NCBI GenBank assembly: GCA_964534365.1
Contig: CAZHOI010000003.1
Span: 4,310 to 68,309 of the forward strand
DNA: 64,000 nt
Reading direction: 5' to 3'
Origin: an uncultured Candidatus Saccharibacteria bacterium
GTDB lineage: Bacteria; Patescibacteriota; Minisyncoccia; Phycocordibacterales; SW-6-46-9
Position numbers and translations under genes: made by a program. Below are positions 394 to 49,283 of this stretch, one piece after another. Every line of letters begins with the position of its first letter. The stretch's first letter is position 1. Under the pieces are notes generated by a model that saw nothing but the letters and a program-made list of their open reading frames with translations, was not told where the DNA came from and made no database searches.

Positions 394-591
394 CTACTAG
401 CAATTAAGTCTAGGTACAAAGCACTTGGGCTTTTTTGCTAGTTTTTGGTGTGGGACTCGCACCACAAGAGTATTTCCATTTTGTAAACAAAACTAGGTCA
501 AAGACAGAGGTGTGCTAAGTCAAAACTTTTAGTTTTGAGCCGAGTCGGGGTCGAGAGTTCTTATAAGCGTAGCGAATTAGAAACTCGTGAC

Positions 592-610
592 CGAGTCCCT
601 GGCCGGTAGC
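592..610. repeat. 19-bp direct repeat of the tRNA-Gln(CTG) 3' end (cgagtccctggccggtagc; first copy at 376-394)
   Basis: Exact 19/19 match seen in the sequence, about 215 bp downstream of the tRNA. The 545-612 stretch looks like a degenerate tRNA 3' half (att-like scar). Confidence 0.7.
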
Positions 611-4797: not shown

Positions 4798-6477
4798 ATG
4801 GGCAACTTTAATTGGCTAAACGAAAATTCACGACAGTTTCTAGAACGAGGCTATTTGCAAGAAGGGCAAACTCCTGAAGACAGGATCAGGTTTATTGCCG
4901 ATAAAGCTGAAGAATACCTTCAGGAAGACGGCTTTGGCGACAAATTTTATGATTACATGTCTCGAGGCTGGATATCCCTGGCATCACCGGTGTGGTCAAA
5001 TTTCGGTCTGGAAAGAGGGTTGCCAATTAGCTGCTTTGGATCATACATTGATGATAATATGGGTTCGATTCTATACACCCATGCTGAAATTGGGATGATG
5101 TCAAAATATGGTGGCGGTACTTCTTTTTATGCTGGGGCTTTGCGACCACGAGGGGCTAAAATTACCAATAACGGCAATTCATCTGGGGCAGTACATTTTA
5201 TACAGTTGTTCGATAAGTTAGTTGAAATAGTCTCGCAAGGGAAAGTGCGACGGGGTAACGTCTCACCATATTTACCAGTCGAGCATGATGACATTAACGA
5301 ATTCCTGGATATTGCTACCGAAGGACATCCAATCCAAGGTTTAACGCATGGCGTTACAGTAACAGACGAATGGTTACAAGAGATGGTGGATGGAGATGAA
5401 GAGAAACGCGCTGTGTGGGCCAAGATAATACAGCGCCGGGGTGAAATTGGGTTTCCCTACATAATGTATGCTGATAATGCCAACAATAACAAACCGCAAG
5501 TATACAAAGACAAAAATAAACAAATATATGCGTCTAATTTGTGCAGCGAAATAATGTTGCCATCTTCGAAAGACGAATCGTTTGTATGCTGCCTGTCATC
5601 AGTTAACGTTCTGCATTACGATGACTGGAAAGACACTGATTTAATCGAGACCATGGTTAAATTCCTGGATGCTGTCATTTCTGATTTTTGTGTCCGCCTA
5701 GAATCACTGCGAGATTCTGATGACGAAGAACAACAAACTGCCTTCGAGTTCATGAAACGAGCCTATAAATTTGCTAAAGAACATCGTGCTGTTGGTCTGG
5801 GCCTTTTGGGGTGGCATTCATTATTGCAATCAAAAATGTTGGCTTTTGATGATGAAAAATCGATGAAATTAAACGCTGAAATCTTCTCGACCATGAAAGA
5901 ACGCGCCGAACAAGCATCAGCCGAGCTAGCCGAAAAACTAGGCGAGCCAGAAATGCTAAAGGGTTACGGTCGGCGTAATACTACGCTCTTGTCTGTTGCC
6001 CCCACCACTTCTAGTGCTTTTATCCTAGGTCAAGTATCACAATCCATCGAGCCGCTGATGTCTAATTGTTATGTCAAGGATCTGGCAAAAATGAAGGTAA
6101 CCGTCAAAAATAAATTTCTCAAAGAGCTGCTGGCTGAAAAAGGTCATGATGATAAGAAGACATGGGATTCAATTCGAGATAATGATGGTTCAGTTCAGCA
6201 TCTGGATTACTTGTCAGACGAAGAAAAGCAAGTATTTCAAACCTTTTCCGAAATTGATCAGTACGCCATTATTGAACAAGCCGCCGTTAGACAAATGTTC
6301 ATCGATCAGGGTCAATCCTTGAATGTAATGATCGGCCCTTCAACGACTGCCAAAGAGATCAATAATCTATATTTAACCGCCTGGCGTAAAGGCATCAAAG
6401 CTCTCTATTATCAGCACAGTATGAATGCCGCTCAAGAATTAACCCGTAAAAAGGTTTGCGAGAGCTGTGAAGCGTAA
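4798..6477 (+). CDS. nrdA: Ribonucleotide reductase class I alpha subunit (NrdA/R1), short form without an N-terminal ATP-cone
   Basis: Active-site motif NLCSEIMLP. C-terminal Cys pair CESCEA. 559 aa. Confidence 0.9.
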   Translation: MGNFNWLNENSRQFLERGYLQEGQTPEDRIRFIADKAEEYLQEDGFGDKFYDYMSRGWISLASPVWSNFGLERGLPISCFGSYIDDNMGSILYTHAEIGMMSKYGGGTSFYAGALRPRGAKITNNGNSSGAVHFIQLFDKLVEIVSQGKVRRGNVSPYLPVEHDDINEFLDIATEGHPIQGLTHGVTVTDEWLQEMVDGDEEKRAVWAKIIQRRGEIGFPYIMYADNANNNKPQVYKDKNKQIYASNLCSEIMLPSSKDESFVCCLSSVNVLHYDDWKDTDLIETMVKFLDAVISDFCVRLESLRDSDDEEQQTAFEFMKRAYKFAKEHRAVGLGLLGWHSLLQSKMLAFDDEKSMKLNAEIFSTMKERAEQASAELAEKLGEPEMLKGYGRRNTTLLSVAPTTSSAFILGQVSQSIEPLMSNCYVKDLAKMKVTVKNKFLKELLAEKGHDDKKTWDSIRDNDGSVQHLDYLSDEEKQVFQTFSEIDQYAIIEQAAVRQMFIDQGQSLNVMIGPSTTAKEINNLYLTAWRKGIKALYYQHSMNAAQELTRKKVCESCEA

Positions 6478-14675: not shown

Positions 14676-15071
14676 TTAAACTACCGGTTCGGTTGTTGCC
14701 TCGACATGTTCGTAATCATGTTTAGGCATCAGAGAATAACCAATATAAGCAAATACCATTGTAAACAATACGTGTAGCCAATTATCAGCAGTATTTAGTC
14801 CCATCAACCCAAATAGGGTACCAGTGGTAAATCCTAGCAAGGTTACCAGGGCATATACTCCAGCAAATGCATAAGCAAAGGTTGCAGCGGCCTTGTCAGA
14901 TTGTTTCGCAAAATAAATAGCCAGAACACCAGACAAAATATGAACAATATTGTGCACAGCGTTAACCATAAACAGTCCTAGTAAAAACCCATCCGGGGTT
15001 AGGGCAGGGATGAATCCTAAAATTCCAATCAGAATAAATACATACCCAAAAATTTCTAATAATTTTTTCAT
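14676..15071 (-). CDS. Small integral membrane protein (4 predicted TM; DUF4383-like?)
   Basis: Hydrophobicity pattern only. Confidence 0.4.
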   Translation of the reverse strand: MKKLLEIFGYVFILIGILGFIPALTPDGFLLGLFMVNAVHNIVHILSGVLAIYFAKQSDKAAATFAYAFAGVYALVTLLGFTTGTLFGLMGLNTADNWLHVLFTMVFAYIGYSLMPKHDYEHVEATTEPVV

Positions 15072-15221
15072 AAGGTTAATTTTAATTGTTATAAAATAAT
15101 TTTACTATACTAATTACAAATTGTACAAACTGTTGATTGCCATGGTTGATGCACACCCGCATTTTTAGCTAACGATCAGTGCGATGAGTCTAATTAGAAA
15201 TTTTTGCACAACTCGTCAAGC

Positions 15222-15425
15222 TTATATAATTCCAAAAGTTAGGTAGGTTATATACAAGGCTAAAACTAGGTATAGTGAAGCCCATCCTTTAGTTAATGGT
15301 AGATATCGCTTTATAAATGATAACTTCTCAATACTGTCATCACCTAGTTTGGTAAATGCAAATAATACCGCTCCTAAACTGTCTAGCACTAGTAATATAG
15401 CAATTATTTCATATATCATATTCAT
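15222..15425 (-). CDS. Small membrane protein (67 aa), hypothetical
   Basis: Two hydrophobic helices. Could be spurious. Confidence 0.25.
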   Translation of the reverse strand: MNMIYEIIAILLVLDSLGAVLFAFTKLGDDSIEKLSFIKRYLPLTKGWASLYLVLALYITYLTFGII

Positions 15426-15581
15426 ATTGTATCATCTTTCAAATTAGTAATTATTACAATAACTATAATTTTGCTAATATTAATAATTAATAATGGTCTA
15501 ATAGTATGAGACAAACAAGTATCGGCATTTATAATAGTCTGTATGCTGATTAATGGTTTTATCTGTTAGAATTTAATAATT

Positions 15582-16310
15582 ATGAATAGATATTTTATTA
15601 CTTCTATACTGGTTGTATTAGGTGCAGCAATCACATTTGGCATAACATTTTTTTATCAAAAACATAAAACAAATACACCTGATGCTGGCACTGCCCAAAA
15701 CAATGACTTGGATGCAAACCAATCTAATATTGATTTTAATACAAACAATACCGAAGAAGTACCACTTTTAACAAATGAAACTAGTGAAGCAGTTTTTGAT
15801 GATCAAGATTATATTAGAAGTTTCGCTGATCTAGGAGGTTCTATTGATTGCAGCTTATTACCATCTTTGATCGAATCAAATTACATATTTAGTCAGCACA
15901 CCAAAGACATTTGCCAAAATAATCGATATCAACCAATTTTTAATTTTCCTGAAGCAACTTCTGAATATCAAAAGTACTTTGATAGTTCGTATGAGATAAT
16001 TTTAGCTGAATTAGATTATGCTCTAAACAAAAAATATCAAGAAGTAATGAACTTTTTAAATAACAATAATGAGGTTGATACTAGAGATTATCAACAAATC
16101 AAAAATGATTTAATTTCATCACAAAGACTTTGGGTTACTTATCATAAAAAAGATTGTGAATTAATTGAGCGAACTAAACCGCCTTATTACAATAGTAAAA
16201 TAAACGTTACTACCTATACGAAACAAAAATGCTTGCAAGATAGTTTCTATTTCCGGACCTTTTATTTAGAAGACTTGTTAAAAAATCTGCAACAGTATGC
16301 AGTAGGTTAG
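15582..16310 (+). CDS. Membrane-anchored hypothetical protein with a DUF1311/LprI-like C-terminal motif
   Basis: N-terminal TM. C-terminal SQRLWVTYHKKDCEL…QKCLQD resembles DUF1311. Confidence 0.4.
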   Translation: MNRYFITSILVVLGAAITFGITFFYQKHKTNTPDAGTAQNNDLDANQSNIDFNTNNTEEVPLLTNETSEAVFDDQDYIRSFADLGGSIDCSLLPSLIESNYIFSQHTKDICQNNRYQPIFNFPEATSEYQKYFDSSYEIILAELDYALNKKYQEVMNFLNNNNEVDTRDYQQIKNDLISSQRLWVTYHKKDCELIERTKPPYYNSKINVTTYTKQKCLQDSFYFRTFYLEDLLKNLQQYAVG

Positions 16311-19747: not shown

Positions 19748-20971
19748 ATGAATTTCTTTACCGCCAAAAAACATCATTTTTCAGACGCAATATACCTAGA
19801 TTACATGGCCTCAACCCCAGTAGCCAAACCGGTATTGCAGGCTATTTCTGACTATCATAAGAATAATTTTGGCAATCCACATTCTAATCACAGCTACGGT
19901 GTGAAAGCCCGTAAAGTGTTCGACGAATCGTTAAATAAAATTGGCAAAATACTAGCTGCACCGGCTGGTAGCTTGACGGCTACCTCGGGTGCCACCGAAT
20001 CTAATGCGATTGCTCTGCAAGGGGTAATAGACCGCGCGATCAATTTAGGAATTGATAAGCCTCATGTGATTATTTCGGAAATTGAACATGCTACGGTGGC
20101 TGGAATCAAGAAATTAGCAGAATCAGAAAAAATAGAATTAGATTATATTACAGTCGATAACAGCGGAATTATTGAATATAAAAAATTACTTGATTTGATT
20201 AAACCAAATACTATTTTAGTTTCTGTCATGTTGGTCAATAGCGAGATTGGTACGGTGCAACCTTTGAACGAGTTATCGCGTGAAATTAGAAGATGGCAGA
20301 AAAAGAATTTGTCTTTGAATAATCAACAATCAAATTATCCACTATTACACACCGATGCTTCTCAGGCCTTTTTAACCCAAGAAATAAAACTCAATCAACT
20401 GCATGTTGACTTGCTGACATTAAATGGGCATAAAATATATGCCCCAATTGGAACTGGATTACTGTATATTAGACCGACTATTAAAGGCCTGATTCAGCCG
20501 ATATTTATATCAAATTATGAAACAGAGTTTATTCGACCGGGAACATCGGCGCCAGCTAATGCCTTGGCGCTGGCTACCGCAATGTCTATGGTAGAACATA
20601 AACGCGCTGATTTTGTAGTAAAGGCTCAGAAATTATTTGAATATCTTGCTCAAGAACTGACATTGATAGGAGGTCAGATTAATGGATCAACCGTTCTGTT
20701 TGAAGAACGCTCTCCTCACAACATTAGCGTTAGTTTTGAAAATATAAATCATGAATTCTTACAATTTCAATTAGATGCATGGGGAATTTCAGTAGCCACA
20801 AGAAGCGCTTGCTTGGAAAGTGGCGGGGAAGGATCGCGGGTACTCCAACACCTTGACACAGAATCAGATCAGGCACTGCGTATTAGTTTTGGTTATGAAA
20901 CCGAAAAAAAAGACCTGCAAATATTGGTAACTAGTTTAAAAAAAGCAATTGATATACAACAATCCGTGTAG
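19748..20971 (+). CDS. Cysteine desulfurase / class V aminotransferase (IscS/NifS-like)
   Basis: IYLDYMASTPV N-terminus and the PLP-lysine motif LNGHKIYAPIGTGLLYI. Start chosen at MNFF, with 19733 as the alternative. Confidence 0.8.
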   Translation: MNFFTAKKHHFSDAIYLDYMASTPVAKPVLQAISDYHKNNFGNPHSNHSYGVKARKVFDESLNKIGKILAAPAGSLTATSGATESNAIALQGVIDRAINLGIDKPHVIISEIEHATVAGIKKLAESEKIELDYITVDNSGIIEYKKLLDLIKPNTILVSVMLVNSEIGTVQPLNELSREIRRWQKKNLSLNNQQSNYPLLHTDASQAFLTQEIKLNQLHVDLLTLNGHKIYAPIGTGLLYIRPTIKGLIQPIFISNYETEFIRPGTSAPANALALATAMSMVEHKRADFVVKAQKLFEYLAQELTLIGGQINGSTVLFEERSPHNISVSFENINHEFLQFQLDAWGISVATRSACLESGGEGSRVLQHLDTESDQALRISFGYETEKKDLQILVTSLKKAIDIQQSV

Positions 20972-21066
20972 TTTACAGGCTTTATCCCAAATGGTTTTTA
21001 AAGTATAATATTAACTAGATTATTAAGTTAGTAAACGGACTAATTAATTAAATAACTCAAATATTA

Positions 21067-23823
21067 ATGATGCCTCCATTTCAGAGATTTACCCAGAAAG
21101 CCCGTGACGCTGTCCGGCACGCCCATGAACTGGCGATTCAGCGTGGTGAAAATCATGTTAATACGCTGCATTTGCTGGCGGCGTTATTATTGCAAGACGA
21201 GAGCCTGATTTTCTCGATCCTGGATCATTTAGCAATTGATTCGGACAAACTAACTGATACGGTTGTTGATGCAATTGAGGTCGATACCGACGGGGAAGAC
21301 GCCGAGGCCACCATCGAGCCGATGAGTCAGATCTTCTTGACCCCTGATTTTGCCAAAGTATTAGAATCAGCCCTTGAACTGTCAAATTCATTCCAGGAAG
21401 AAAAAGTATCTACCGAACACCTGTTTCTAGCCATATTTTCAGTGCCATCTCCAGGACGTGAAATCTTGTCACGTTTTAAAGTCGAGGCGAAACAGGTAAC
21501 GCAAGCAATGAATGATTTAAAAAACGACCGAATCAAAGATGTCAAAACCGCGAGTCCTAAAAACAAAACTGTTGAACGTTTTACCCGCAACTTAACCAAA
21601 ATGGCCAAAGATAACAAACTTGACCCCGTTATCGGCCGTGATCAAGAAATTAATCGCGTAATTCAAATTTTGTCGCGGCGTACTAAAAATAACCCAGTGT
21701 TACTAGGGGAACCAGGCGTAGGTAAAACGGCTATTGTTGAAGGTTTGGCCATCAGAATGGCTACTGGCGATGTGCCAGAATCATTAAAAGGTAAGGAATT
21801 AGTGTCACTAGATTTAGGGTCATTAGTCGCCGGAACGAAATACCGGGGCGAATTTGAAGATCGCCTGAAAAAGATTATGAAGGAAATTGAAAAGGCCAAA
21901 GGTCAGTTGGTTCTGTTTATTGATGAAATTCATACCATTGTAGGGGCTGGATCAGCCGAAGGTTCCATGGATGCATCAAATATGCTAAAACCTGCTCTGG
22001 CCAGAGGCGAACTGCGCGCGATTGGCGCCACTACCCTCAAGGAGTATCAAAAATATATTGAAAAAGATTCAGCCCTCACACGACGTTTTCAACCCGTTTA
22101 CGTGAACGAACCCAATAGCGAAGATGCGATTGCGATTTTGCGGGGACTCAAAGAAAAGTACGAGGTATTTCATGGGGTCAAAATATTGGACGAAGCCCTG
22201 TCATCATCGGTTGGACTATCATCACGCTATATTACTGATCGTTTTCTACCAGACAAAGCGATTGATTTAATTGATGAAGCATCGTCCAGTCTGCGAATGA
22301 CCCTGGAGAATAAACCGGCTGATCTAGAAGCCGCGCATCGCAAGATTATGCGCCTAGAGATTGAAAAGCGGGCCCTCGAAAAAGAGGCTAGTGACAATGA
22401 TAAAGCCGCCAAGCGCCTTGACGAGATCGAAACCCAAATTGCTAATTTGCAGGAAAACACCCATGAACTGGAGCTTAAATGGCAAAATGAAAAGGAAACT
22501 TTGGATCAAATTAAATCCCTAAAGGTCGAGGCAGAAGAATTAAAGGTTGAAGCCGATAACGCCGAGAGCGCAGCTGATCTAACTCGAGCTGCCGAAATAC
22601 GTTATGGCGATTTACCCGAAGTTGAGCGCGAGCTTGATACTAAATCCAAAAAATTGAAACGTCTGCAGCGATCCCGTCGCATTCTAAAAGAAGAAGTCGG
22701 TGAAGAAGAGATCGCTGACGTTGTTTCGCGCTGGACCGGAATTCCACTATCGCGCATGTTGGAAGGCGAGGCCAAGCGCCTACAAAAAATTGAGGACGAG
22801 CTAAAAAAACGCGTCAAAGGCCAGGATGAAGCGGTCGAGAAAATATCTGATGCGATCAAACGATCACGGGCCGGGGTGTCTGATCCCGACAAACCAATTG
22901 GTTCATTTATGTTTTTAGGCCCTACCGGGGTTGGAAAAACCGAACTAACTAAAGCCTTAGCTGATTATTTATTTGATGATGAAGAAGCCCTGATTAGGGT
23001 AGATATGTCCGAGTTGATGGACAGGCATTCTACCTCGAAATTAATTGGCGCCCCCGCTGGATACGTTGGTTATGACGAGGGTGGACAATTAACCGAACAG
23101 GTTCGACACCGGCCGTATTCAGTAGTTCTATTTGACGAAATTGAAAAGGCACACCCCGATGTATTTAACATTTTATTACAGGTACTTGACAATGGGCGCC
23201 TAACCGATACCAAAGGTAGGGTGGTAAACTTTAAAAACACCGTAATTGTGATGACGTCAAACGTGGGTGCTGAACACATTGATCAGATGGAATCATTGGG
23301 ATTTGGTACCTCGCAAAAAGATGATTACGAAGGGGTCAAGGATAAAGTTATGGACGCCCTAAAGCGTCAGTTCCGTCCCGAATTCATTAACCGAGTAGAT
23401 GAAATAATTCTGTTTGATGTTTTGAAACCGAAAACGGTACGCAAAATTGTTGATGTGCAACTAACCCGTGTAATTAACCGAATGAATAATAAAGAAATTA
23501 AAATTAAATTTAGTGATGAGGTGCGCGATTACCTGGCTGAAAAGGGCTATGACCCACGATTCGGCGCCAGGCCATTAAAACGGGTAATCCAGCGCAAAAT
23601 CCTCTCGCCGGTTGCAAATGAAATTATTGCGGGTAAGGTAGTAGAAGGTGGCGAAATTGAAGTCGAGCTAAAATCCAGTTCCGACAAAGACTCTAATGGA
23701 ACGCCAGGTGATGAACCGGTAGTAAAAATAGTTAAAAAAGGTCGAGGTAAAACCAAAGCCGGTCGGGCCCGTAAAGAACAGAAAGCACAAAAAGAATTGA
23801 GCAAAGAAAAAGTAGCGGCCTAG
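21067..23823 (+). CDS. clpB: ATP-dependent chaperone ClpB, with a Lys-rich C-terminal tail
   Basis: Clp N-domain, two AAA+ modules ([16 protein letters not shown]) and a long coiled-coil middle domain. 918 aa. Confidence 0.93.
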
Positions 23824-23889
23824 CGGTCAAAACTGGCATCAGTCATAAAAATATTCTAAACTCTAATTTACAAAGAATTTCTTTGTAAC

Positions 23890-23973
23890 GCGTCGATGGC
23901 AGAGCGGTCAAATGCACGAGACTGTAAATCTCGCGACTTTAAGTCTACGCAAGTTCGAATCTTGCTCGGCGCA
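23890..23973 (+). tRNA. tRNA-Tyr (anticodon GTA), type II
   Basis: Acceptor GCGTCGA/TCGGCGC, D GCA-GAGCGGTCAAA-TGC, anticodon stem CGAGA/TCTCG with loop CTGTAAA, variable hairpin GACTTTAAGTC, T-arm GCAAGTTCGAATCTTGC. Confidence 0.8.
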
Positions 23974-23982
23974 CTAGCGCAG

Positions 23983-24015
23983 AAACCCGATAGGTTTAAT
24001 CTATCGGGTTTTGTG
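23983..24015 (+). terminator. Perfect 11-bp-stem hairpin (aaacccgatag-gtttaat-ctatcgggttt) followed by TGTG/T-rich; candidate terminator after tRNA-Tyr
   Basis: Seen directly. The T-tract is short. Confidence 0.5.
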
Positions 24016-24064
24016 CTTTAGCACCAAGGTTCGAAGCAAGGTACTGGGAGTGATAGCGAGCAGC

Positions 24065-24082
24065 AAATCTTGCTCGGCACAC
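24065..24082. repeat. Near-duplicate of the tRNA-Tyr 3' end (aatcttgctcggc-acac; original 23958-23974)
   Basis: 17/18 match with a single-base deletion. Preceded at 24028-24041 by a degenerate T-arm-like ggttcgaagcaagg. Confidence 0.6.
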
Positions 24083-24445
24083 TTTTTTGCAATCAGTAAT
24101 CCCGAGTTGCGGGACTACATCGCTATGGCATAGAAATTAAAATTTCTATTAGCAACATTAGTATCTGAAATTTGAAGCAAGATGCTGGGGAATGTGAGAA
24201 GTGTTTTCGCTAGGGTATAGGTTTTTTAAAAATTATTAGCTGATTTCGCCATAAGGCTGAATTAGAGTGATACGAGTGATTAATTAGGAGTCAGCAAATT
24301 TCTTAATAAATTATTTACAAAACCTTTCACAAAACTGTTTTTTGTTGTATAAAGTAGCTAGACCATCCCTCTGGCTCTCGTCAACCCTGACTAGAGCTTT
24401 AACCAGAGAGCGCTGGATTGCTGCTCTCGTACCCCCAATACTTAC

Positions 24446-25240
24446 ATGGCGTGGCTTGACTCCATCCTCAAAATTGGTTCTTCAGAAGAAAAAAAGTACA
24501 TAGCTGATCAAGCTCAGCCAGAAAAGGATACCGATTCTGATGAATTAAGTGAAGATCTACCTACAACAAGCAAGGACAATAAACGCTTAACCGTCAAAAA
24601 AACTCAAGTTGCCCAGATGCAACAAAAACAAAAAGAAAGACTTGAAAAGGAAGCTCGAGCAATAAATCCTGCCAAGCTAGACGATGATTATCGCCCGCAA
24701 GCAAGAGCTACTCCTAGAACAAAGGAGGACATCCTTGCTTCTCAGCGGGGTAGTAATTCCTCTCCGGTTCCGAAAGGTTCAAGTTCTGACGAAAATCAGT
24801 TAAAAGCTTTTGAGTTAACTGAGGATCAAGCGGCATTAAGAGCTGCAAAGATATTCTGGTTTATTTTCCAAGAAATATCTAGGGTGCCACTGGCAGCAGG
24901 CCGAAGCTATTCTGAACAGCTGCGTAACACCCTTCTTTTAACTCACCTTAAAGAGCTGGGAGGCTTAGAGCTAAAAAGCCAGGTGGTCAACGCTATTGCG
25001 GATGTTAGTCCTGATAGTAATGAAGAAGGGTTTGTAAATTCTGTCAGTAGATCACTGGCTGCTATCGAGCTCAGAGAGCTAAGGCAGCTAGTACTTCTAC
25101 TCGATCACGACCTCGCATATAGACAAAAAAGCTTTGTCAAATACCGTGAGGAAGTGGAAAGTGCTGAAACAAGACAAATTCTGGGTACTTCAACCTTGCC
25201 GCCCAAGTTGGCTGGCATGAGGCTACTAGCTGGCGGCTGA
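24446..25240 (+). CDS. Hypothetical protein in the higher-GC island (264 aa)
   Basis: Long ORF with coding-like periodicity and visibly higher GC. No recognisable domain. Confidence 0.45.
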   Translation: MAWLDSILKIGSSEEKKYIADQAQPEKDTDSDELSEDLPTTSKDNKRLTVKKTQVAQMQQKQKERLEKEARAINPAKLDDDYRPQARATPRTKEDILASQRGSNSSPVPKGSSSDENQLKAFELTEDQAALRAAKIFWFIFQEISRVPLAAGRSYSEQLRNTLLLTHLKELGGLELKSQVVNAIADVSPDSNEEGFVNSVSRSLAAIELRELRQLVLLLDHDLAYRQKSFVKYREEVESAETRQILGTSTLPPKLAGMRLLAGG

Positions 25241-25493
25241 TATGGCACTACACCTTACGGCCCGTATGCAGGTAAAGCTGACGGGCTGATCATAAAGGTA
25301 GAGCATAGTTCTTTATACCGATCGCAGACATCATCTCGGTGGTGCCTGTTTTTTATATAAAACCACAATATAAAGATTAATAAAGTCCTTGAATAATAAC
25401 CTTATTTATTGTTTAATATGCGGTAATTGACCCTGGAACGTGGCCTTGCGCCCGCTCGGGCACGTTCTCTCACACACAACCATATACATACCC

Positions 25494-26861
25494 ATGAAAA
25501 AGCACATGCTTGCCATGTTGGCGCTGCTGTGCTTCAGCACGCCAGCCCAAGCCTCGGCGGACTACGCCCAGATGCAGCTCCCCGAGGGAGCAACTGACGG
25601 AGCCTTCGGGCTCTACCGCGATGCTGGGCTCCTCGAGCTCTGGCACGCTGATTCAGTCAAAGCTTACAGCACCGAGGTTTCCGACTGGACGAATGAGCCA
25701 GCCGGAACCAACATTGTGGTGCGCCGCGAAGTCCGCGACCACTACAGCAATGTATCTACCCGTGCTACGCCGCCCCGGCGTACTGGTGGCTCTACATCTT
25801 CGACTACTGTTGTCCAGGGCTTTACTCAGGCTCAGGTTAACGCGCTTGTAGCCCAAGCGGTTGCCCAAGCCAGGAACGAGACAATAGACAGCATGCAGGC
25901 TGTCTTCGACGCGAGGGAAATCTCAGCCGATAACTCAGAAGAGGCTGCCGATCCTACAGGTGAGGGCGATAACTTTATTGTCCACCACTTGGACAATCTG
26001 TGGAATAACTACCGTTGGCTGGTCCTTACTGGTTTAATAGTGTTGCTGGTAGCGATACTACTGCTAGTAGGATCTATGCGAGGCTGGGACCGTCCAGTTC
26101 GCCAGAAAATCCAGCAGTGGAAAGAAAAACGGGACTTAGAAAAAGAAGCGAAGAAAAACGGCGATGATGCCGTTGCTGAAATCCGAGAGGAACTTGGTGA
26201 AGAACCTCCGCTGTGGAGAAGAAGCCTGGAGAAGCTGCGAGCCTTGTTTAATGGGAGCGAAGATGACTCACAGGAAGAGGTCGATGATGACCTTCCATCT
26301 GATGAGGCACTCTTAGCTGCTCAAATCGAAGAGGGCATAGCTCCTGGTTTGCCCTCAACTCCTCCGCTGCCGCCTTTAGCGCCTGCTGATCTATCTGAAG
26401 AAGAAATATCGGCCCGAAAAGAGGCCGCGGCCAGCGCTCAAGAGAAAAGGGCAAAAGAGCGATCCAGTAAGGGATCCTCAAGTGTAACCCAGGTAAAACC
26501 TCAACTTCAGGAGGGGGTCAAAGAGGATACCCCCTTGAAAGCAGGCCTCAAGAAAAAGTATGACTTCGTTGAACAAGATAAAGTTGTGCTAGAGCTTCCC
26601 GCTTTTGAACAAGAGGTAATCGTTACCTTAGAGGGATTCAGAAGTACTAAAGCATGGCTTATAATCAGTGGGGGCAGGAACACCTACGCCTATTTGGTGA
26701 AGGGTAAAGTTCAATTACTGCCCGTTCAAGAGCTGGATGTTATCCGAGAGGGTAACGTCGCTGATAGAAGACTAAACGATTGGGGGCTAACAAGGATGTC
26801 CCCTAATACAGCCGACAAAAGCGATGAAATCCCTGGATTCCTTCGCAAGATGATGGACTAA
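25494..26861 (+). CDS. Hypothetical secreted/membrane protein: signal peptide, one internal TM, Pro-rich cytoplasmic linker, unknown C-terminal domain
   Basis: MKKHMLAMLALLCFSTPAQA signal-like N-terminus. Internal TM LVLTGLIVLLVAILLLVGS. PPLPPLAP stretch. High GC. Confidence 0.45.
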   Translation: MKKHMLAMLALLCFSTPAQASADYAQMQLPEGATDGAFGLYRDAGLLELWHADSVKAYSTEVSDWTNEPAGTNIVVRREVRDHYSNVSTRATPPRRTGGSTSSTTVVQGFTQAQVNALVAQAVAQARNETIDSMQAVFDAREISADNSEEAADPTGEGDNFIVHHLDNLWNNYRWLVLTGLIVLLVAILLLVGSMRGWDRPVRQKIQQWKEKRDLEKEAKKNGDDAVAEIREELGEEPPLWRRSLEKLRALFNGSEDDSQEEVDDDLPSDEALLAAQIEEGIAPGLPSTPPLPPLAPADLSEEEISARKEAAASAQEKRAKERSSKGSSSVTQVKPQLQEGVKEDTPLKAGLKKKYDFVEQDKVVLELPAFEQEVIVTLEGFRSTKAWLIISGGRNTYAYLVKGKVQLLPVQELDVIREGNVADRRLNDWGLTRMSPNTADKSDEIPGFLRKMMD

Positions 26862-26886
26862 ACCAGGTAAACGGTTGTGTGGATAA

Positions 26887-26934
26887 GGTCGGTCTGTCGA
26901 GTGTGATATCACTCCCAGATCGACCGTTTTTTTA
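26887..26934 (+). terminator. Rho-independent terminator (ggtcggtctg…cagatcgacc + TTTTTTT)
   Basis: 10-bp stem with one mismatch, followed by a 7-T tract directly after the island ORF. Confidence 0.65.
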
Positions 26935-26975
26935 TTTCTATGGATAACTAATGATCAAGTCTTTATAATACTTGG

Positions 26976-27611
26976 ATGCAGACAGACTATTTAAAAGCGC
27001 TAAATTGGCGTTATGCCGTCAAGGAATTTGATGGTGATTATAAACTGCCAGCCGACAAACTAAATCGGATTTTAGAAGCTGCTAGATTGGCACCCAGTTC
27101 GTATGGACTAGAACCATGGCAGATAATTCACGTTCAAAATCCAGAACTACGGCAACAAATCCAGAAATCCGGGTATGGTCAGGAAAAGATCACCAATGCC
27201 TCGGAATTATTAGTTATTGCTGCTAAAACAGATGGCAAAGCTGCTAGCAGTGATTTAATAGATCGAATATCTAAAATTCGTAATATTGACAAGACGAAAT
27301 TAGAAGACTTCAAAAAAACAATAGATTCTAGTGTAGAATCACGTCGAAATGTTGGCAATGAAGTTGGTTGGCTGCAATCACAAACTTATATTCTATTAGG
27401 TTTCATTTTATTTGCAGCAGCTTTAGAGGGAGTCGACGCCTGTCCAATGGAGGGGTTTATACCGGAAAAAGTAACTAAAATACTACAACTCGAGCAAGAA
27501 GGCTTGGTTGCCACTACTATGGTTGCCCTGGGCAGACGATCAAGTTCAGATGAATACGCTGATAAAATCAAAGTACGCCAAGACTTAGCTGAACTAGTTC
27601 AAAATAAATAA
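26976..27611 (+). CDS. NAD(P)H nitroreductase family protein
   Basis: N-terminal ALNWRYAVKEF…RLAPSSYGLEPWQ matches the nitroreductase pattern. Confidence 0.8.
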   Translation: MQTDYLKALNWRYAVKEFDGDYKLPADKLNRILEAARLAPSSYGLEPWQIIHVQNPELRQQIQKSGYGQEKITNASELLVIAAKTDGKAASSDLIDRISKIRNIDKTKLEDFKKTIDSSVESRRNVGNEVGWLQSQTYILLGFILFAAALEGVDACPMEGFIPEKVTKILQLEQEGLVATTMVALGRRSSSDEYADKIKVRQDLAELVQNK

Positions 27612-27652
27612 CTATTGTTATTATCAGTAATTTATTCTAAAATCTAGCAACT

Positions 27653-27949
27653 ATGGCTCAAAAAACAATGACAATTATCCAGAATAAACAAACTGGCTAC
27701 ACTTACTATACAACTCGCGCCAAAAAAGGCGAGAAGGCGGATGAAAAGTTAAAATTACGCAAGTACGATCCTATATTGCGGGCCCACGCCTGGTTTGAGG
27801 AGGTAAAGGGATCAAAGCCCAAGAAAAAGACCCGTTCGACTAGCGCTCAGGGTAAAAAGGGGAAGGTTGATAATTCAAATAATTCTGCCAAGAAAACTAA
27901 AGACGACAAAAACGATAAGAAAAACTTAGATAAGAGTTCAGAAAAGTAA
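27653..27949 (+). CDS. rpmG: 50S ribosomal protein L33 with a ~45-aa Lys-rich C-terminal extension
   Basis: TGYTYYTTRAKKGEKADEKLKLRKYDPILRAHAWFEEVK aligns with E. coli L33 [37 protein letters not shown]. Confidence 0.65.
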   Translation: MAQKTMTIIQNKQTGYTYYTTRAKKGEKADEKLKLRKYDPILRAHAWFEEVKGSKPKKKTRSTSAQGKKGKVDNSNNSAKKTKDDKNDKKNLDKSSEK

Positions 27950-27986
27950 TCAGGATCTTGGATTAATTATATAGGGTTATTTTAGA

Positions 27987-28013
27987 AGTCCGACTTCCAA
28001 TGGAAGTCGGACT
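27987..28013 (+). terminator. 12-bp perfect hairpin (agtccgacttcc/ggaagtcggact) after rpmG; no T-tract
   Basis: Seen directly. Function uncertain. Confidence 0.35.
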
Positions 28014-28030
28014 ACTTTACAATGCAATAA

Positions 28031-28930
28031 ATGAAAATATGGGATGCAATTATAATTGGCGATGGTCCGGCTGGACTATCTGCGGGAATCTATTTATCTC
28101 GAGCTAATCACAGCAATTTAATTATTGGTTGTGGTACTGGCCGGTGGCATTATGGGCAATTAAATCAAAATTACCTAGGATTTCCAGATGGAATAGAAGT
28201 AGATGAATTACACAAACTGGGGCTAGATCAAGCAAAAAACTATGGTTCAGAATTTTTATCAGCCAAGGTAACCAGATTGGAATTTCATGACAAAAATTGG
28301 CTAGTTAGAACCAGTACCGAAAAAGCCTTTAAATCAAAAGCGATTATTTATGCCACCGGCGTAACTGATAGATGGCCTAAAAATCTCAACACAGAAAAGT
28401 TTGTCGGAACATTTGTGTTCTGGTGTATTACATGTGATGGATACCGTGCTAAAAGCAAACCGATCGTAATCGTTGCCGATTGCAATACTAATGTTGAAAC
28501 CATCCTGCAATTCCAAGATTTTACCAGTGACATTACTGTAATTAGAAACGCCGATGCCCAATTTTTGTCTGATAATCAGCAAGTTATATTTAGCAGTAAT
28601 AAAATTAAAGTAATCAATAGTAATTTCACCGAAATCCAGGAGACAGATCACAGTTACCGAATATGTATTGGGGGAGAATATTATGATTTTGCCATGATGT
28701 TTTCATTACTGGGATCAACCCCAAATACCGCCTTGTTACAAGAATTAAACTTAATTGACCTTGACGATGAGGGTTTTATAAAAATTGACGACAAGAACAG
28801 AACCAATCATGAATCGTTTTTTGCAGCAGGAGATGTGACCGCTAAACACTCACACCAAATTGCCACTGCCGTTCACGAAGGCGCTCAGGCCGCTCAGGCC
28901 GCTACATACTTCCTCTACAAGAATTACTAA
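28031..28930 (+). CDS. Thioredoxin reductase-like FAD/NAD(P)-dependent disulfide oxidoreductase
   Basis: N-terminal FAD motif IIGDGPAGLSAG. Redox CxxC motif WCITCDG at the position of the TrxB CAxCDG. Confidence 0.75.
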   Translation: MKIWDAIIIGDGPAGLSAGIYLSRANHSNLIIGCGTGRWHYGQLNQNYLGFPDGIEVDELHKLGLDQAKNYGSEFLSAKVTRLEFHDKNWLVRTSTEKAFKSKAIIYATGVTDRWPKNLNTEKFVGTFVFWCITCDGYRAKSKPIVIVADCNTNVETILQFQDFTSDITVIRNADAQFLSDNQQVIFSSNKIKVINSNFTEIQETDHSYRICIGGEYYDFAMMFSLLGSTPNTALLQELNLIDLDDEGFIKIDDKNRTNHESFFAAGDVTAKHSHQIATAVHEGAQAAQAATYFLYKNY

Positions 28931-29055
28931 ATTTATAGTAAGCTATCTGTTATCTGGCATAAATTTGCAGGCAAATCAATTTGCAAATTCATGTTTGATA
29001 ATTTGTGCTAGATAATGTGCAAATAGATTTTACTAAAAAATCTATTTCATGAAGA

Positions 29056-29075
29056 GGTAATTTTCTAAAATTACC
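29056..29075 (+). promoter_or_regulatory. 9-bp palindrome ggtaatttt/aaaattacc immediately upstream of tRNA-Trp
   Basis: Seen directly. Function unknown. Confidence 0.3.
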
Positions 29076-29086
29076 GACTGTAGAGA

Positions 29087-29157
29087 GGGCGATTAGTTAA
29101 ATGGTATAATGAAGGTCTCCAAAACCTTAGTTGGGGGTTCGATTCCCTCATCGCCCG
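29087..29157 (+). tRNA. tRNA-Trp (anticodon CCA)
   Basis: Acceptor GGGCGAT/ATCGCCC, anticodon stem AAGGT/ACCTT with loop CTCCAAA, T-loop GGTTCGATTCC. Confidence 0.75.
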
Positions 29158-29282
29158 CTGGAGTTATAAACTAAGAAAAAGTTATGTCATTTCTAGAAGA
29201 TATGGATAGAGAAAGAAAAAAAGCTGGTTTAATAGAAACCATAAAAGACTTGTGAAAAGAAGGCAAAACTCTCGATGATGAG

Positions 29283-29504
29283 GTGGCAAGGTTAGATACT
29301 GCTGATGAAGAAATCGTTTTAACATACCGAGATAAGTTAAAGTTAGTTAAACAACTTGAAATTGAACAAAAGAAAAGAAACATATCTGCTGCATTAGACG
29401 TAGTGACTAAAGACTTGTTTTCAGAAGTTGGATTAGATAAAGATCCCCATTCTCAAGTAGGAAAAAAATTTAGAGAGCTTTTACTTCAGTGGTTAGACGA
29501 ATAA
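29283..29504 (+). CDS. Hypothetical small helical protein. A same-frame upstream ORF at 29184-29255 is separated from it by a single TGA.
   Basis: ORF with a GTG start. See the finding on the in-frame TGA. Confidence 0.3.
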   Translation: MARLDTADEEIVLTYRDKLKLVKQLEIEQKKRNISAALDVVTKDLFSEVGLDKDPHSQVGKKFRELLLQWLDE

Positions 29505-30370
29505 TTATTAAGCAATTTGACCTTTGATGGAAACCACTTAATCTCTTCATTACGCTTAAACCAAGTTAGTTGCCTTTTTGCATATCTTAGCTCGGCTTGG
29601 ATAATATTTTTTCTTAGGTCCTCAACTGAAGTTTTAGTTTCTAGGTGTTCAACCACGGACCGATAGGTTAGGCCAATAGATCGCAGCCAATCAGGCGACA
29701 CTCCACCAGAAATAAGGTTTTTCACTTCGTCAACTAATCCATTTTCTATTCTAGATTTGGTTCTATAAACAATTCTTTTCTTAAGATCACTTTTACCCGG
29801 ATTTAGTCCCAGCCAAGCAAACTTAATTTCTGTACCACGTTTTATTTTATGTTGTTTAGGAATCTGGCCGTGGGTTAACCATAGTCCTAGGCGATTACGG
29901 ACCCTGGCTGGATTTTGATTGTCAAATGACTGCCAGACTTGGGCAGGCAATACCTCTACTGCTTGTTTATTTAGACATCGGATGTCTAAATTTTTTAAGT
30001 TTTTCTTTACTTCTAAGTCAACCTTGGCATACTTTGTGTTATTAACTAAGGTATCAATATAGAATCCAGTTCCGCCGGTAATAATAGGGACTTTATTTTG
30101 GGAAATTATCTTCTCTATAGCTTTATTTCCCAATTGCCGAAAATCCTCGACACTAAAATCATCGCCTGGATTAGCCACATCAATCAGATGATGTGGAATA
30201 CCTTGCATCTCTGCGTCGGAAATTTTACCAGATCCAATATCCAGACCACGATAGACTTGTACAGAATCCGCCGATATTATCTCGCCATTAATCCGCTTTG
30301 CCAGCTCTATCGCAGCACCAGTTTTGCCTGACGCAGTTGGACCAACAATTACATGTACTGTCTTAACCAT
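29486..30370 (-). CDS. miaA: tRNA dimethylallyltransferase
   Basis: VIVGPTASGKTGAAIELA P-loop. DSVQVYRGLDIGSGK. Confidence 0.9.
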   Translation of the reverse strand: MVKTVHVIVGPTASGKTGAAIELAKRINGEIISADSVQVYRGLDIGSGKISDAEMQGIPHHLIDVANPGDDFSVEDFRQLGNKAIEKIISQNKVPIITGGTGFYIDTLVNNTKYAKVDLEVKKNLKNLDIRCLNKQAVEVLPAQVWQSFDNQNPARVRNRLGLWLTHGQIPKQHKIKRGTEIKFAWLGLNPGKSDLKKRIVYRTKSRIENGLVDEVKNLISGGVSPDWLRSIGLTYRSVVEHLETKTSVEDLRKNIIQAELRYAKRQLTWFKRNEEIKWFPSKVKLLNNYSSNH

Positions 30371-31698
30371 TAATCAATAACCTCTATATTGGCGCCTATG
30401 GCATTCAAACGGTTAAAAATATTTTCATAACCCCGATTAATTGGGGCAACCGAATGCAGCTCGGATACACCATCAGCTGCTAACATGGCCACCAATATAA
30501 TCATTGATGGTCGCAATGCAGGTGGGCAAATCACCTTGGCGCCGCGTAATGGGGTAGGGCCTTCAATGAATACACGGTGGGGATCTGCTAAATTGACGTT
30601 CGCACCCAGCCGATTTAGTTCAGTGAAATAAATTGCACGATTTTCCCACATCCAATCATGAATTAGGGTCAGCCCATCTGCCTGAGTAGCAATAGGAACA
30701 AAAAATGGCAAATTATCAGAATTGATGCCGGGATATGGGACCGCATGAATCTTGTCATGTATGGCCTGGAGCTTTGATGGTGCGACCGTAATGTCGACTA
30801 AACTGGTTCGCCCGTTATCGGCTTTGTATTCAGGCTGCATATCGAATTCTAGTCCCATTGCCGCGAGTACAATCAGTTCGCGACGCAAAAACTCAATCGG
30901 GCAGTGAGTTATAGTTAAATTAGATTCTGTGACTGCTGCTGCCGCAATTAACATCATTGATTCGATAGGATCTTCGGCCAAACTATAATCAACATCAACA
31001 TTAATATTGGGTTGCCCGGTGATAATTAATTTAGAAGTGCCGATACCTTCAATGTTTACCCCTAATTTTTCCAAGAAAAAACATAATTCCTGCACCATGT
31101 AATTAGCCTGAGCAAAGTTAATAATTGTAGTTCCTGGTAAGGTTGCAGCCGCCAGTAGCACACTTTCGGTAGCAGTGTCCGAGCTTTCATATAGAGTAGT
31201 TTCGCCCGAGGTGCGACCGGTCGCATCAATTTCGTAATGGTCTTCGGTAGTAGTAATTTCAATACCTAAATCTTGCAAGCTGTGACGATGCGCGGTAATT
31301 GTTCGCTGACCCATTTTGCAACCCCCGGCGTGCGGCCAATTGAACTGATCATATTGAGCCGATAAAGCCCCTAAAAACAAAATTGTAGATCGACCGCCTC
31401 GCAATAAAGATTGACGATCAACAGAAGCAATATTTAGTTTGTCCGGTGTTTTTATTTCCAGCGTCTTGTTGTCTAGCCAATTCAGCTCCACACCCAGAGA
31501 CTGGGCGGCGTCTAACAGGCGGTGTACGTCCGAAATGCGACTCACATTATGTAGGGTAGTTTTGCCGTGATTCAACAACGCTGCCGATATAATGGCCACG
31601 GTCGAGTTTTTAGTTGAATTAGTCTTTATCTGTCCTGACAGCTGACTATTGCCAGTTATGCGGATATTATTTACTTGGTTGCTAGTATTGACGCTCAT
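30370..31698 (-). CDS. murA: UDP-N-acetylglucosamine 1-carboxyvinyltransferase
   Basis: EPT-fold, 442 aa. Preferred over AroA because it sits next to murB and the genome has a peptidoglycan-only context. Confidence 0.75.
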   Translation of the reverse strand: MSVNTSNQVNNIRITGNSQLSGQIKTNSTKNSTVAIISAALLNHGKTTLHNVSRISDVHRLLDAAQSLGVELNWLDNKTLEIKTPDKLNIASVDRQSLLRGGRSTILFLGALSAQYDQFNWPHAGGCKMGQRTITAHRHSLQDLGIEITTTEDHYEIDATGRTSGETTLYESSDTATESVLLAAATLPGTTIINFAQANYMVQELCFFLEKLGVNIEGIGTSKLIITGQPNINVDVDYSLAEDPIESMMLIAAAAVTESNLTITHCPIEFLRRELIVLAAMGLEFDMQPEYKADNGRTSLVDITVAPSKLQAIHDKIHAVPYPGINSDNLPFFVPIATQADGLTLIHDWMWENRAIYFTELNRLGANVNLADPHRVFIEGPTPLRGAKVICPPALRPSMIILVAMLAADGVSELHSVAPINRGYENIFNRLNAIGANIEVID

Positions 31699-49073: not shown

Positions 49074-49139
49074 ATCTCTATTTTAACTTAATACAAACAG
49101 GAAAATAGGTCATGCCAATACTTTTTGGTCGATGCGGTC

Positions 49140-49157
49140 ACGACAGGATTCGAACCT
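49140..49157. repeat. Duplicate of the tRNA-Ser T-arm (gacaggattcgaacctgc) within a non-foldable tRNA-like remnant at 49127-49195
   Basis: An 18-bp identical T-arm with a different, unpairable acceptor. Confidence 0.55.
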
Positions 49158-49195
49158 GCGCTGTATTGCTCTACACTCGCTTTCTCCCTCACAAA

Positions 49196-49283
49196 GCGGA
49201 GAGGACAGGATTCGAACCTGCGGTCGGTTTAACCCGACACTACCTTTCCAAGGTAGCGCATTCAACCACTCTGCCACCTCTCC
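49196..49283 (-). tRNA. tRNA-Ser (anticodon GGA), type II
   Basis: Reverse complement reads GGAGAGG TG GCAGAGTGGTTGAATGC, anticodon stem CTACC/GGTAG with loop TTGGAAA, variable arm TGTCGGGTTAAACCGACC, GCAGGTTCGAATCCTGT CCTCTCC G. Confidence 0.75.

Follow-up and report, generated by a model that had tools for sequence, protein, structure and literature searches.

Replacement-type flexible genomic islands and hypervariable surface-protein slots at conserved positions have been described for marine bacteria. A locus of related character is present in a 64,000-nucleotide (nt) stretch of contig CAZHOI010000003.1 (the window, that is, the whole stretch analyzed, with position 1 as its first letter), where two orphan genes, the open reading frames (ORFs) ORF264 and ORF455, lie downstream of tRNA-Tyr. 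Like the flexible islands, the slot that holds these genes is fixed between core ClpB/tRNA-Tyr and ribosomal protein L33/tRNA-Trp, and the slots of relatives hold non-homologous genes, many of them for exported or membrane proteins, with no mobility genes. In contrast with the flexible islands, the window slot is tiny (two genes, 2.8 kb) and carries orphans, not cassettes of the glycosyltransferase or O-antigen type. Flexible islands are also defined by population-level polymorphism, whereas the window slot is known from comparison between genomes.

A second class of described system is the integrative island targeted to tRNA genes, in which, as Williams reportedly set out in 2002, insertion is mediated by an integrase and the att direct repeats derive from the tRNA 3' end. 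The window locus shares with such islands its tRNA adjacency, a direct copy of the tRNA 3' end, one gene of foreign composition and absence from relatives. It differs in that an integrase is missing, the repeat does not bracket the genes, and the repeat is conserved and part of a structured RNA. For RNA elements of this kind, which trail tRNA genes in Paceibacteria, the closest analogue known to us would be the 178-bp repeats of the Escherichia coli tyrT operon and the rtT RNA (RF00391), non-coding units that each contain a copy of the last ~19 nt of tRNA-Tyr. Both consist of repeat units behind a tRNA that carry a copy of its 3' end, and both occur as tandem arrays. Unlike the tyrT repeats, the Paceibacteria elements follow many tRNA species and combine a 5' arm complementary to the copied T-stem/T-loop with a conserved three-way-junction core, and the two share no sequence or structure-model match.

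The explanation favored here, with a probability of about 0.6, is that the stretch from tRNA-Tyr to the nitroreductase-L33 pair is a plastic slot whose contents differ even between close genomes, and that its occupant has been replaced by two orphan genes, of which ORF455 was imported and encodes a strain-specific surface protein, with no part played by a tRNA-targeting integrase. The former occupant would be a membrane-anchored exported protein of 351/360 amino acids (aa) that two relatives have kept. ORF455 would come from a donor of higher GC (~55-60%), and ORF264 would be either older or derived from a donor of similar GC. The copy of the tRNA at the left edge would be the 3' arm of a decayed element older than both genes.

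The slot between tRNA-Tyr and L33

The gene content of the window is typical of a reduced bacterium and includes RbfA, IF-2, ClpB, sortase, MurB, ParB, RelA/SpoT and topoisomerase I. All of the top ClpB matches are metagenome-assembled genomes of Paceibacteria/Parcubacteria, and the window is therefore a piece of the chromosome of an uncultured bacterium of the Patescibacteria, or candidate phyla radiation (CPR). ClpB identity reaches at most 64-65% among GTDB species representatives and JGI metagenome contigs. Four nearer relatives, with 83-87% ClpB identity, were found only by protein search of a large collection; one of them comes from the marine metagenome ERR594339.

At least 40 of 80 Paceibacteria genomes have tRNA-Tyr no more than a few hundred bases behind ClpB, and tRNA-Trp usually comes later; a few genomes have L33 straight after ClpB. 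The order ClpB, tRNA-Tyr, variable slot, L33, tRNA-Trp is ancestral Paceibacteria synteny. The tRNA-adjacent position, which the sequence-only reading of this DNA had taken as a sign of acquisition, is thus an ancestral arrangement and no signature of insertion. The distance between tRNA-Tyr and tRNA-Trp is 0.2-3.8 kb among relatives and 5.1 kb in the window. The contents of the interval are unrelated between genomes, consisting of alanine racemase, assorted signal-peptide proteins or nothing, and secreted proteins are often among them.

The nearest relatives display the same combination of a conserved frame and a variable filling. L167, L168 and L172 retain ClpB, tRNA-Tyr and L33 (L167 also the nitroreductase) yet lack ORF264 and ORF455, a comparison made at only 83-87% ClpB identity. 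The nitroreductases of the window and L167 are 49% identical and the L33 proteins 77% at the amino acid level; since the pair is conserved in L167, the nitroreductase belongs to the frame of the slot and not to an island. The slot of L167 harbors a 360-aa protein (15051-16133) that is 62% identical over 260 aa to a 351-aa protein in the slot of L172 (5300-6355). Both are N-terminally anchored, have no Pfam domain and have no counterpart in the window, and this membrane protein appears to be the ancestral slot occupant, missing in the window. ORF264 and ORF455 show no similarity to any slot protein of the relatives. A presence/absence screen, which bears on the earlier suggestion of an acquired module, found neither gene in the four nearest relatives recovered or in 160 more distant syntenic loci. 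This pattern is best read as the replacement of genes in a plastic slot, which is ordinary for CPR genomes.

ORF264 and ORF455 are the sole ORFs of at least 100 aa in 23975-26975, and both are orphans in the searches described next. The description of both proteins as lacking recognizable domains and motifs is borne out, as neither has a Pfam domain, and sequence searches of Pfam, NCBIfam, PHROG, PADLOC and PDB gave no meaningful match for either. The best PHROG E-value is 0.09 and PADLOC returns nothing, which leaves the two proteins without a phage or defense family. A word-index search of 5.8 billion proteins with both ORFs retrieved self-matches only, and an exhaustive phmmer (HMMER) search of 1.84 billion cluster representatives with ORF455 retrieved only its own fragment. 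No match was found for either protein by tblastn against 50,697 phage records, or for ORF264 in a scan of IMG/VR. Likewise, tblastn against 2.4 Mb of related loci revealed no homologue of either, and there is no paralogue in the window. Ubiquitous core-gene homologues, which would speak against a novel module, are therefore not seen in the protein, phage or related-locus searches. Pfam, PHROG and PADLOC scans of the locus also detect no integrase, transposase, phage or defense gene.

The two genes differ in composition. Against the baseline of the 55 ORFs of the window (mean GC 0.398±0.042; mean third-position GC, GC3, 0.345±0.066), ORF455 has the top GC (0.523, z +3.0) and a GC3 of 0.532 (z +2.8). 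ORF264 is ordinary in both respects (GC 0.442, z +1.0; GC3 0.358, z +0.2), and its codon-position GC of 0.57/0.40/0.36 is usual for window genes. In consecutive terms, GC measured in 400-nt windows is 0.50-0.58 solely within ~25200-26600. It is 0.385-0.445 over 24000-25400, no higher than in ClpB (0.445), and the flank with the nitroreductase and L33 (26976-27949) has a GC of 0.39. The raised GC noticed earlier for 24100-26900 is accordingly real for ~25200-26600 and absent from 24000-25400, and because ORF264 is native-like there is no single compositionally coherent island. Along ORF455, GC3 is 0.80 in the signal peptide, 0.61 in the ectodomain and 0.42-0.51 in the C-terminal half (0.87, 0.63 and 0.67 over the first 90 codons, and 0.30-0.57 later), and the GC of the ectodomain (25554-25988) is 58%. 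The third positions of ORF455 are unadapted, so its recent import from a higher-GC donor, and hence a horizontal origin, is likely. The dinucleotide delta* of ORF455 lies at the 89th percentile of equal-sized windows, which is not extreme.

Both ORFs have the pattern of GC1 above GC2 seen in other window genes. The estimated chance of ORFs of 473 and 264 codons at these GC contents is ~1e-4 and ~0.03 per window; at these lengths, both are very unlikely to be chance ORFs. Elsewhere in the window, a 139-aa ORF at 2187-2606 on the minus strand has the top GC3 (0.586, z +3.7) and no Pfam domain; it could be spurious or, like ORF455, an orphan of foreign composition.

The sequence-only reading had proposed that the two genes form one horizontally acquired module. 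The part of this proposal that concerns ORF455 agrees with its foreign-looking composition, and the part that concerns ORF264 does not, given its native-like GC3. The idea of a joint module finds no backing in the layout either, in which each gene has a terminator-like structure of its own and a weak promoter-like stretch precedes ORF455 (Table 1).

The tRNA-Tyr 3'-end copy and the origin of the two genes

The last 17 nt of tRNA-Tyr (23958-23974) recur at 24066-24082 with 16/17 identity, and these are the only two matches in 64 kb at up to two mismatches, against 0.01 expected. No copy is present near 26862-26975 or elsewhere in the 64 kb at the same stringency, and the two genes are thus not bracketed. 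A 108-nt segment comprising the terminator hairpin and the copy is common to the window, L171 (ClpB 85%) and L170 (86%), and the hairpin of tRNA-Tyr is kept in both relatives via compensatory changes. The homology between the window and L171 ends exactly at 24082, the last base of the copy. As the segment is common to L171 and L170, the copy is older than ORF264 and ORF455. The duplicate noted beside the tRNA is genuine, and what falls away is its interpretation as the scar of an island edge.

The region around the copy is structured (fold of 23975-24095, z -5.1). The stretch 24019-24082 begins 45 nt past tRNA-Tyr on the same strand, and its 5' arm CAAGGTT (24026-24032) forms 7 bp, one of them G-U, with AATCTTG of the 3' arm. 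On this arm anatomy only, the stretch is called a putative degenerate remnant of a tRNA-trailing element. The covariance model of the element family (R1, described below) gives no match at 23975-24100 at E <=10 even with filters off, and the P2/P3 core is absent from the 64-nt remnant. A second remnant is possible at 24170-24188, where the evidence is marginal (local alignment score 23; shuffles mean 14.7, sd 2.1, max 24).

The tRNA copy is the starting point of a classical alternative, in which an element with an integrase inserted into the 3' end of tRNA-Tyr, left an att scar and later lost the integrase. Such an island would account for the 17-nt direct copy, the absence of the genes from relatives and the foreign composition of ORF455, and the stop of L171 homology at the end of the copy means that the copy does mark the start of variable DNA. 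The geometry is nonetheless wrong for an island: both copies precede the genes at a spacing of 108 nt, and the window contains no third one. The copy and the intervening hairpin, being kept in L171 and L170, predate the split of the lineages, and similar copies follow 7-19% of the Tyr, Trp, Leu, Lys and Cys tRNA genes in Paceibacteria. With no integrase, transposase or phage gene at the locus and with an ORF264 that is not foreign in composition, a tRNA-integrated island is very improbable. An origin without any transfer, in which both genes are native, vertically inherited and evolved beyond recognition and ORF455 owes its GC excess to its amino-acid composition, is somewhat easier to entertain but still unlikely. 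CPR genomes are rich in lineage-specific hypothetical membrane proteins, the GC3 of ORF264 is native, the dinucleotide signature of ORF455 is not extreme, and the nearest sampled relative is only 87% identical in ClpB, a distance over which weakly constrained proteins could become unrecognizable. However, the GC3 of ORF455 (0.53 overall and 0.61-0.80 in the N-terminal third, +2.8 sd) exceeds what amino-acid composition explains. At comparable divergence, another slot protein retains 62% identity between L167 and L172, and the nitroreductase of the window is 49% identical to that of L167, so that a total loss of similarity by both ORFs is not expected; moreover, the relatives carry different genes at this position.

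The remaining alternatives turn on whether the locus and ORF455 are each of one piece. Assembly chimerism or contamination, with a higher-GC fragment of another organism joined to a Paceibacteria contig, would fit the jump in GC at ~25.4 kb and the several short contigs that terminate within the GC-rich stretch. The locus was, however, assembled in seven independent samples (JGI 3300040787/88/98/99, SRR7428105, SRR7428122 and the NCBI assembly), with all overlaps 100% identical; NCBI is recorded among the sources of the ClpB, ORF264 and ORF455 protein clusters. Both borders are spanned by three contigs (L001, L002 and L004) and the left border by two more, which excludes a chimeric join and settles the concern about misassembly that had accompanied the initial description. 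Assemblies of different samples and pipelines are base-for-base identical over both transitions, the GC change sits within one continuous 455-codon ORF with no junction there, and the chimera reading is effectively refuted. A subtler possibility is that ORF455 is a mosaic, in which only the 5' third (~25430-26000, signal peptide and ectodomain) was recently swapped by recombination onto an older membrane-anchor/cytoplasmic part. The drop in GC3 after the first 90 codons suggests this, as do the contig ends at 25538 and 25600 and the start of L175 at 26034, all within the GC-rich part, and the unmapped fragment P0125 (322 aa). Against it, the overlapping contigs are all 100% identical with no alternative allele, the breaks may simply mark low coverage of GC-rich DNA, and the GC3 of the C-terminal half still exceeds the window mean. 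A mosaic is therefore about as unlikely as vertical descent, and so is its corollary that ORF455 is a surface protein with a variable ectodomain. Replacement in a plastic slot, with ORF455 imported, is preferred over all of these.

Three contigs break within the GC-rich part of ORF455 (L005 ends at 25538, L003 ends at 25600 and L175 begins at 26034), and a fourth ORF455 fragment, P0125 (322 aa), is listed and unmapped. No alternative allele is seen in the overlapping contigs at these breaks. The simplest reading is low coverage of GC-rich DNA; heterogeneity of the strain or population is also a candidate.

Predicted proteins and layout of the locus

The outline of the larger protein drawn from the letters, with a signal peptide, an ectodomain, one transmembrane (TM) helix and a PPLPPLAP linker, is recovered. 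Of the two sizes given, 264 aa is correct and 456 aa is not, the ORF being 455 aa long; alternative starts are GTG 25440 and ATG 25506. The N-terminus resembles a signal peptide (MKKHMLAMLALLCFSTPAQA followed by SA), with a positive n-region, a hydrophobic core and an AQA/S cleavage motif. Acidic residues before the TM helix and an R/K-rich stretch after it indicate an N-out/C-in topology. AlphaFold is confident (per-residue confidence score, pLDDT, 81-92) only in the TM and juxtamembrane helices, to about residue 252, and the linker has a pLDDT below 50. ORF264 has no hydrophobic span. Its charged and largely disordered N-terminal part, of ~110 residues, includes one long helix, and a helical bundle is predicted for residues 113-245 (pLDDT 67-86).

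A JGI label of YlxR/DUF448 on a 261-aa fragment of ORF455 (P0002) is reproduced neither by Pfam at E <=1 nor by NCBIfam. Pfam at that threshold lists only DUF7231 (E 0.015), OSTbeta and SCIMP for ORF455, all far under the cut-off, and no DUF448.

The arrangement of ORF455 invites comparison with ZipA and TonB, bitopic proteins in which a TM helix is followed by a charged region, a Pro-rich linker and a small globular domain. After its TM helix, ORF455 has the same order of charged helix, acidic/Pro-rich linker and ~70-aa alpha/beta domain, a likeness of architecture only. There is no sequence similarity to ZipA_C or TonB_C and no Pfam match to either at E <=1. ORF455 differs from both in its additional cleavable signal peptide and 145-aa ectodomain, and from TonB in its opposite topology, with the linker and C-terminal domain in the cytoplasm.

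Judged from its predicted features, ORF455 is most likely a strain-specific surface protein. It would be made as a Sec-exported, single-pass type-I membrane protein with a domain of ~145 residues outside the cell and, inside, a positive juxtamembrane helix, then a long and flexible linker rich in acidic residues and proline, and finally a small folded domain at the C-terminus. Such a protein could link an external target, be it a host cell, a phage or an envelope partner, to a partner in the cytoplasm, which might be ORF264. A surface-exposed function is plausible in view of the topology and of the exported proteins in the slots of other genomes. Adjacency of the genes weakly suggests that ORF264 and ORF455 are partners. 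A role as effector or in host interaction, as once proposed, is speculation; what is supported is the membrane/surface topology of ORF455.

The features of the locus are collected in Table 1. The strong terminator announced past the larger gene is there as a stem-loop with a U7 run.

Table 1. Features of the tRNA-Tyr locus and of ORF455, the related element behind tRNA-Gln, the contigs that cover the locus and the gene orders compared. Positions are those of the window unless given in aa; gene orders show slot contents and the Exo_endo_phos gene in parentheses.
Feature	Position	Strand	Basis or remark
ClpB	21067-23823		conserved neighbor of tRNA-Tyr; GC 0.445
tRNA-Tyr(GTA)	23890-23974	+	ARAGORN; Rfam tRNA 58.8 bits; CCA not encoded
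Terminator-like hairpin of tRNA-Tyr, AAACCCGATAGGTT / AATCTATCGGGTTT then U-run	23983-24018	+	inverted repeat; fold
Putative short degenerate tRNA-trailing element	24019-24082	+	arm anatomy
Possible second-element remnant, TTTGAAGCAAGATGCTGGG (compare TTCGAAGCAAGGTACTGGG at 24030-24048)	24170-24188	+	local alignment, marginal
ORF264, orphan, predicted cytoplasmic protein	24446-25240	+	264 aa
Structured region 3' of ORF264, ending in GGUGCCUG plus U6, terminator-like	25244-25354	+	fold -37 kcal/mol, z -2.6
Weak promoter-like TTGAAT-18-TAATAT	~25389-25420	+	read from sequence; under promoter-scan threshold
ORF455, orphan, predicted type-I membrane protein	25494-26861	+	455 aa
ORF455 signal peptide	aa 1-20
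ORF455 ectodomain	aa 21-165; 25554-25988		~145 aa
ORF455 TM helix	~aa 171-199		single strongly hydrophobic span
ORF455 charged helices	aa 195-252
ORF455 acidic/Pro-rich disordered linker	aa 255-384		~130 aa; Glu/Asp/Pro/Ser-rich; contains PPLPPLAP
ORF455 small alpha/beta C-terminal domain	aa 385-455		~70 aa; beta-hairpin + helices, pLDDT 53-70
Intrinsic terminator of ORF455, 15-bp interrupted stem then U7	26887-26932	+	-26.4 kcal/mol, z -2.5
Nitroreductase	26976-27611	+	Pfam; right flank, outside acquired segment
Ribosomal protein L33	27653-27949	+	Pfam; right flank, outside acquired segment
Canonical tRNA-trailing element behind tRNA-Gln(CTG) 323-394	493-610	+	R1 58.4 bits, E 3e-13, not in seed
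Contig L001, JGI 3300040788	covers 20000-31000		100% identical
Contigs L002/L006, Logan SRR7428105	cover 22852-31000		100% identical
Contig L004, JGI 3300040798	covers 24160-27108		100% identical
Contig L003, Logan SRR7428122	reaches 25600		100% identical in overlap
Contig L005, JGI 3300040787	reaches 25538		100% identical in overlap
Contig L175, JGI 3300040799	begins at 26034		identical to window from there on
Gene order, window			ClpB-tRNA-Tyr-(ORF264, ORF455)-nitroreductase-L33-TrxR-tRNA-Trp-MiaA-EPSP synthase
Gene order, L167/L168			ClpB 87%; RbfA-IF2-aminotransferase-ClpB-(Exo_endo_phos)-tRNA-Tyr-(EamA, 125 aa, 360 aa)-nitroreductase-L33-...-tRNA-Trp-...-MiaA-EPSP synthase
Gene order, L172			ClpB 83%; ClpB-tRNA-Tyr-(351 aa)-L33

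ORF455 is flanked by an inverted repeat, 25473-25487 and 26867-26881 (15 nt, 13/15 complementary, 9 perfect), 7 nt before its start and 6 nt past its stop. As the ends of a cassette this repeat was rejected, since equally high scores occur at 3 of 54 window genes. Two other repeats close to the borders, D3 and I8, are AT-rich and were put down to chance. The L33 of the window has a Lys/Ser/Asp-rich C-terminal extension of ~45 residues (98 aa, compared with 79 aa in L167), and the Pfam L33 match is limited to its residues 18-52.

A family of tRNA-trailing RNA elements

All fetched loci were scanned for copies of a tRNA's own 3' end (15 nt, at most two mismatches) within 400 nt downstream. At least one copy follows 15 of 99 tRNA-Tyr genes, 13 of 67 for Trp, 13 of 171 for Leu, 9 of 66 for Lys and 5 of 72 for Cys; none of the copies in the scanned loci lies within another tRNA gene. 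The elements to which such copies belong are ~100-140 nt long and share a common plan. Behind the tRNA there is often a terminator-like hairpin (in 32 of 52 cases) and then a 5' arm complementary to the T-loop/T-stem part of the 3' arm. In some elements, a small hairpin and a complement of the acceptor 3' strand come before this 5' arm. The core consists of two hairpin domains with the common motifs ..GGAUUCGAAAGGCGGAGC.., ..CGAGCCGGGGUCGAG.. and ..CUCGUGACCGA.., and the 3' arm repeats the final 15-23 nt of the tRNA in front of it. The whole forms a three-way junction, in which the T-loop, T-stem and acceptor 3' strand of that tRNA are copied by the closing helix together with the 3' tail. Some loci carry elements in tandem, behind tRNA-Cys (L117, L062), tRNA-Leu (L034) and tRNA-Trp (L017), including exact duplicates of whole elements.

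An alignment of nine canonical members (MAFFT/RNAalifold) yields a three-way junction with compensatory changes at 17 of 25 pairs, and the covariance model R1 was built from it; its conserved P2/P3 core reads ..CGGAG..CGAGCCGGGGUCG..CUCGUGACC... Searching 2.46 Mb at E <=1e-3, R1 found 72 matches, 68 of which lie 22-237 nt downstream of a tRNA on the same strand (Tyr 16, Cys 12, Lys 10, Trp 9, Leu 16, Ala 4, Gln 1). Examples are L025 1709-1825, L091 15140-15260 and L153 18781-18892, and the loci range from L007 to L172. Across 38 model-aligned matches, 91% of cells pair, compared with 65% when shuffled and 35-44% when the partners are slid, and compensatory changes are present at all 25 pairs. 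This alignment was fitted to R1 and its counts lean to the structure; the MAFFT/RNAalifold result, obtained independently, agrees. In the 38-match alignment, G-U predominates at two positions, which identifies the tRNA strand as the functional one. Abundance is about one tRNA gene in ten in the loci sampled.

The window itself carries a canonical member behind tRNA-Gln; its 3' arm (592-610) repeats the 19 nt of 376-394 exactly, and its 5' arm, GTGGGACTCG, is found at 450-459. Just past this element, at ~631-700 on the plus strand, are two tandem ~32-nt units with the palindrome GGTGACTGTCACC (…TAGGGTGACTGTCACCTATTTCACCTATTT…), operator-like in look. Downstream of tRNA-Ser(GGA) (49196-49283), the minus-strand stretch 49134-49195 holds a second full copy of the tRNA-Ser T-arm, GCAGGTTCGAATCCTGT, with CGTGACCGC in place of the acceptor strand and preceded by GAGGGAGAAAGCGAG-like motifs of other element subtypes. 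R1 matches this stretch weakly (11.8 bits).

No Rfam 15 family matches any member tested. The RtT model (RF00391) has no match at E <=1 on 23700-27100 and 300-700 of the window, nor at E <=10 on L153 12700-13600. Two exact-pattern matches in IMG/VR lie within coding DNA and were dismissed as chance. A literature search found no description of the tRNA-trailing element; the group I introns at tRNA position 35/36 reported by Nakagawa et al. 2025 (bioRxiv 10.1101/2025.07.03.662931) are distinct from it.

Sharing a locus or a tRNA species does not make element cores more similar to one another, which argues against a general recent transposition or intragenomic spread. In L092, the elements behind tRNA-Lys (5052-5127) and tRNA-Trp (15574-15646) have cores near identical by eye and arms that fit their own tRNA. 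These look-alike cores and the tandem duplicates hint at local spread or unequal crossing-over. Outside the family, a plus-strand stretch of L153 just upstream of tRNA-Trp (14731-14831) contains a 100-nt match to bacterial 23S rRNA 2121-2220 (51.9 bits) outside an rRNA operon, perhaps an L1-stalk mimic with the role of a ribosomal-protein leader.

The odds are about even that the duplicate behind tRNA-Tyr is the decayed end of this Paceibacteria RNA family, new to Rfam 15 and to the literature searched. Its members could be processed tRNA mimics or non-autonomous recombination/insertion modules, and might thereby make the DNA directly behind tRNA genes, with this slot as one case, a hotspot of gene replacement.

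The locus also carries a caution, in that a GC bump beside a tRNA does not on its own amount to an integrated island in a CPR genome. An island made by an integrase, a coherent 2.8-kb GC island and a specific effector function are not supported. What remains is an ordinary CPR case, a small variable slot with unclassifiable orphans, one of them recently imported, which was rightly spotted and over-interpreted as a tRNA-integrated island. If expressed, ORF455 is a candidate for a surface protein specific to one strain of an episymbiotic bacterium and could bear on host or phage specificity. The tRNA-trailing RNA family is the more valuable by-product and the most interesting result, and it points to an unrecognized link of tRNA genes with RNA processing or genome plasticity in Patescibacteria.

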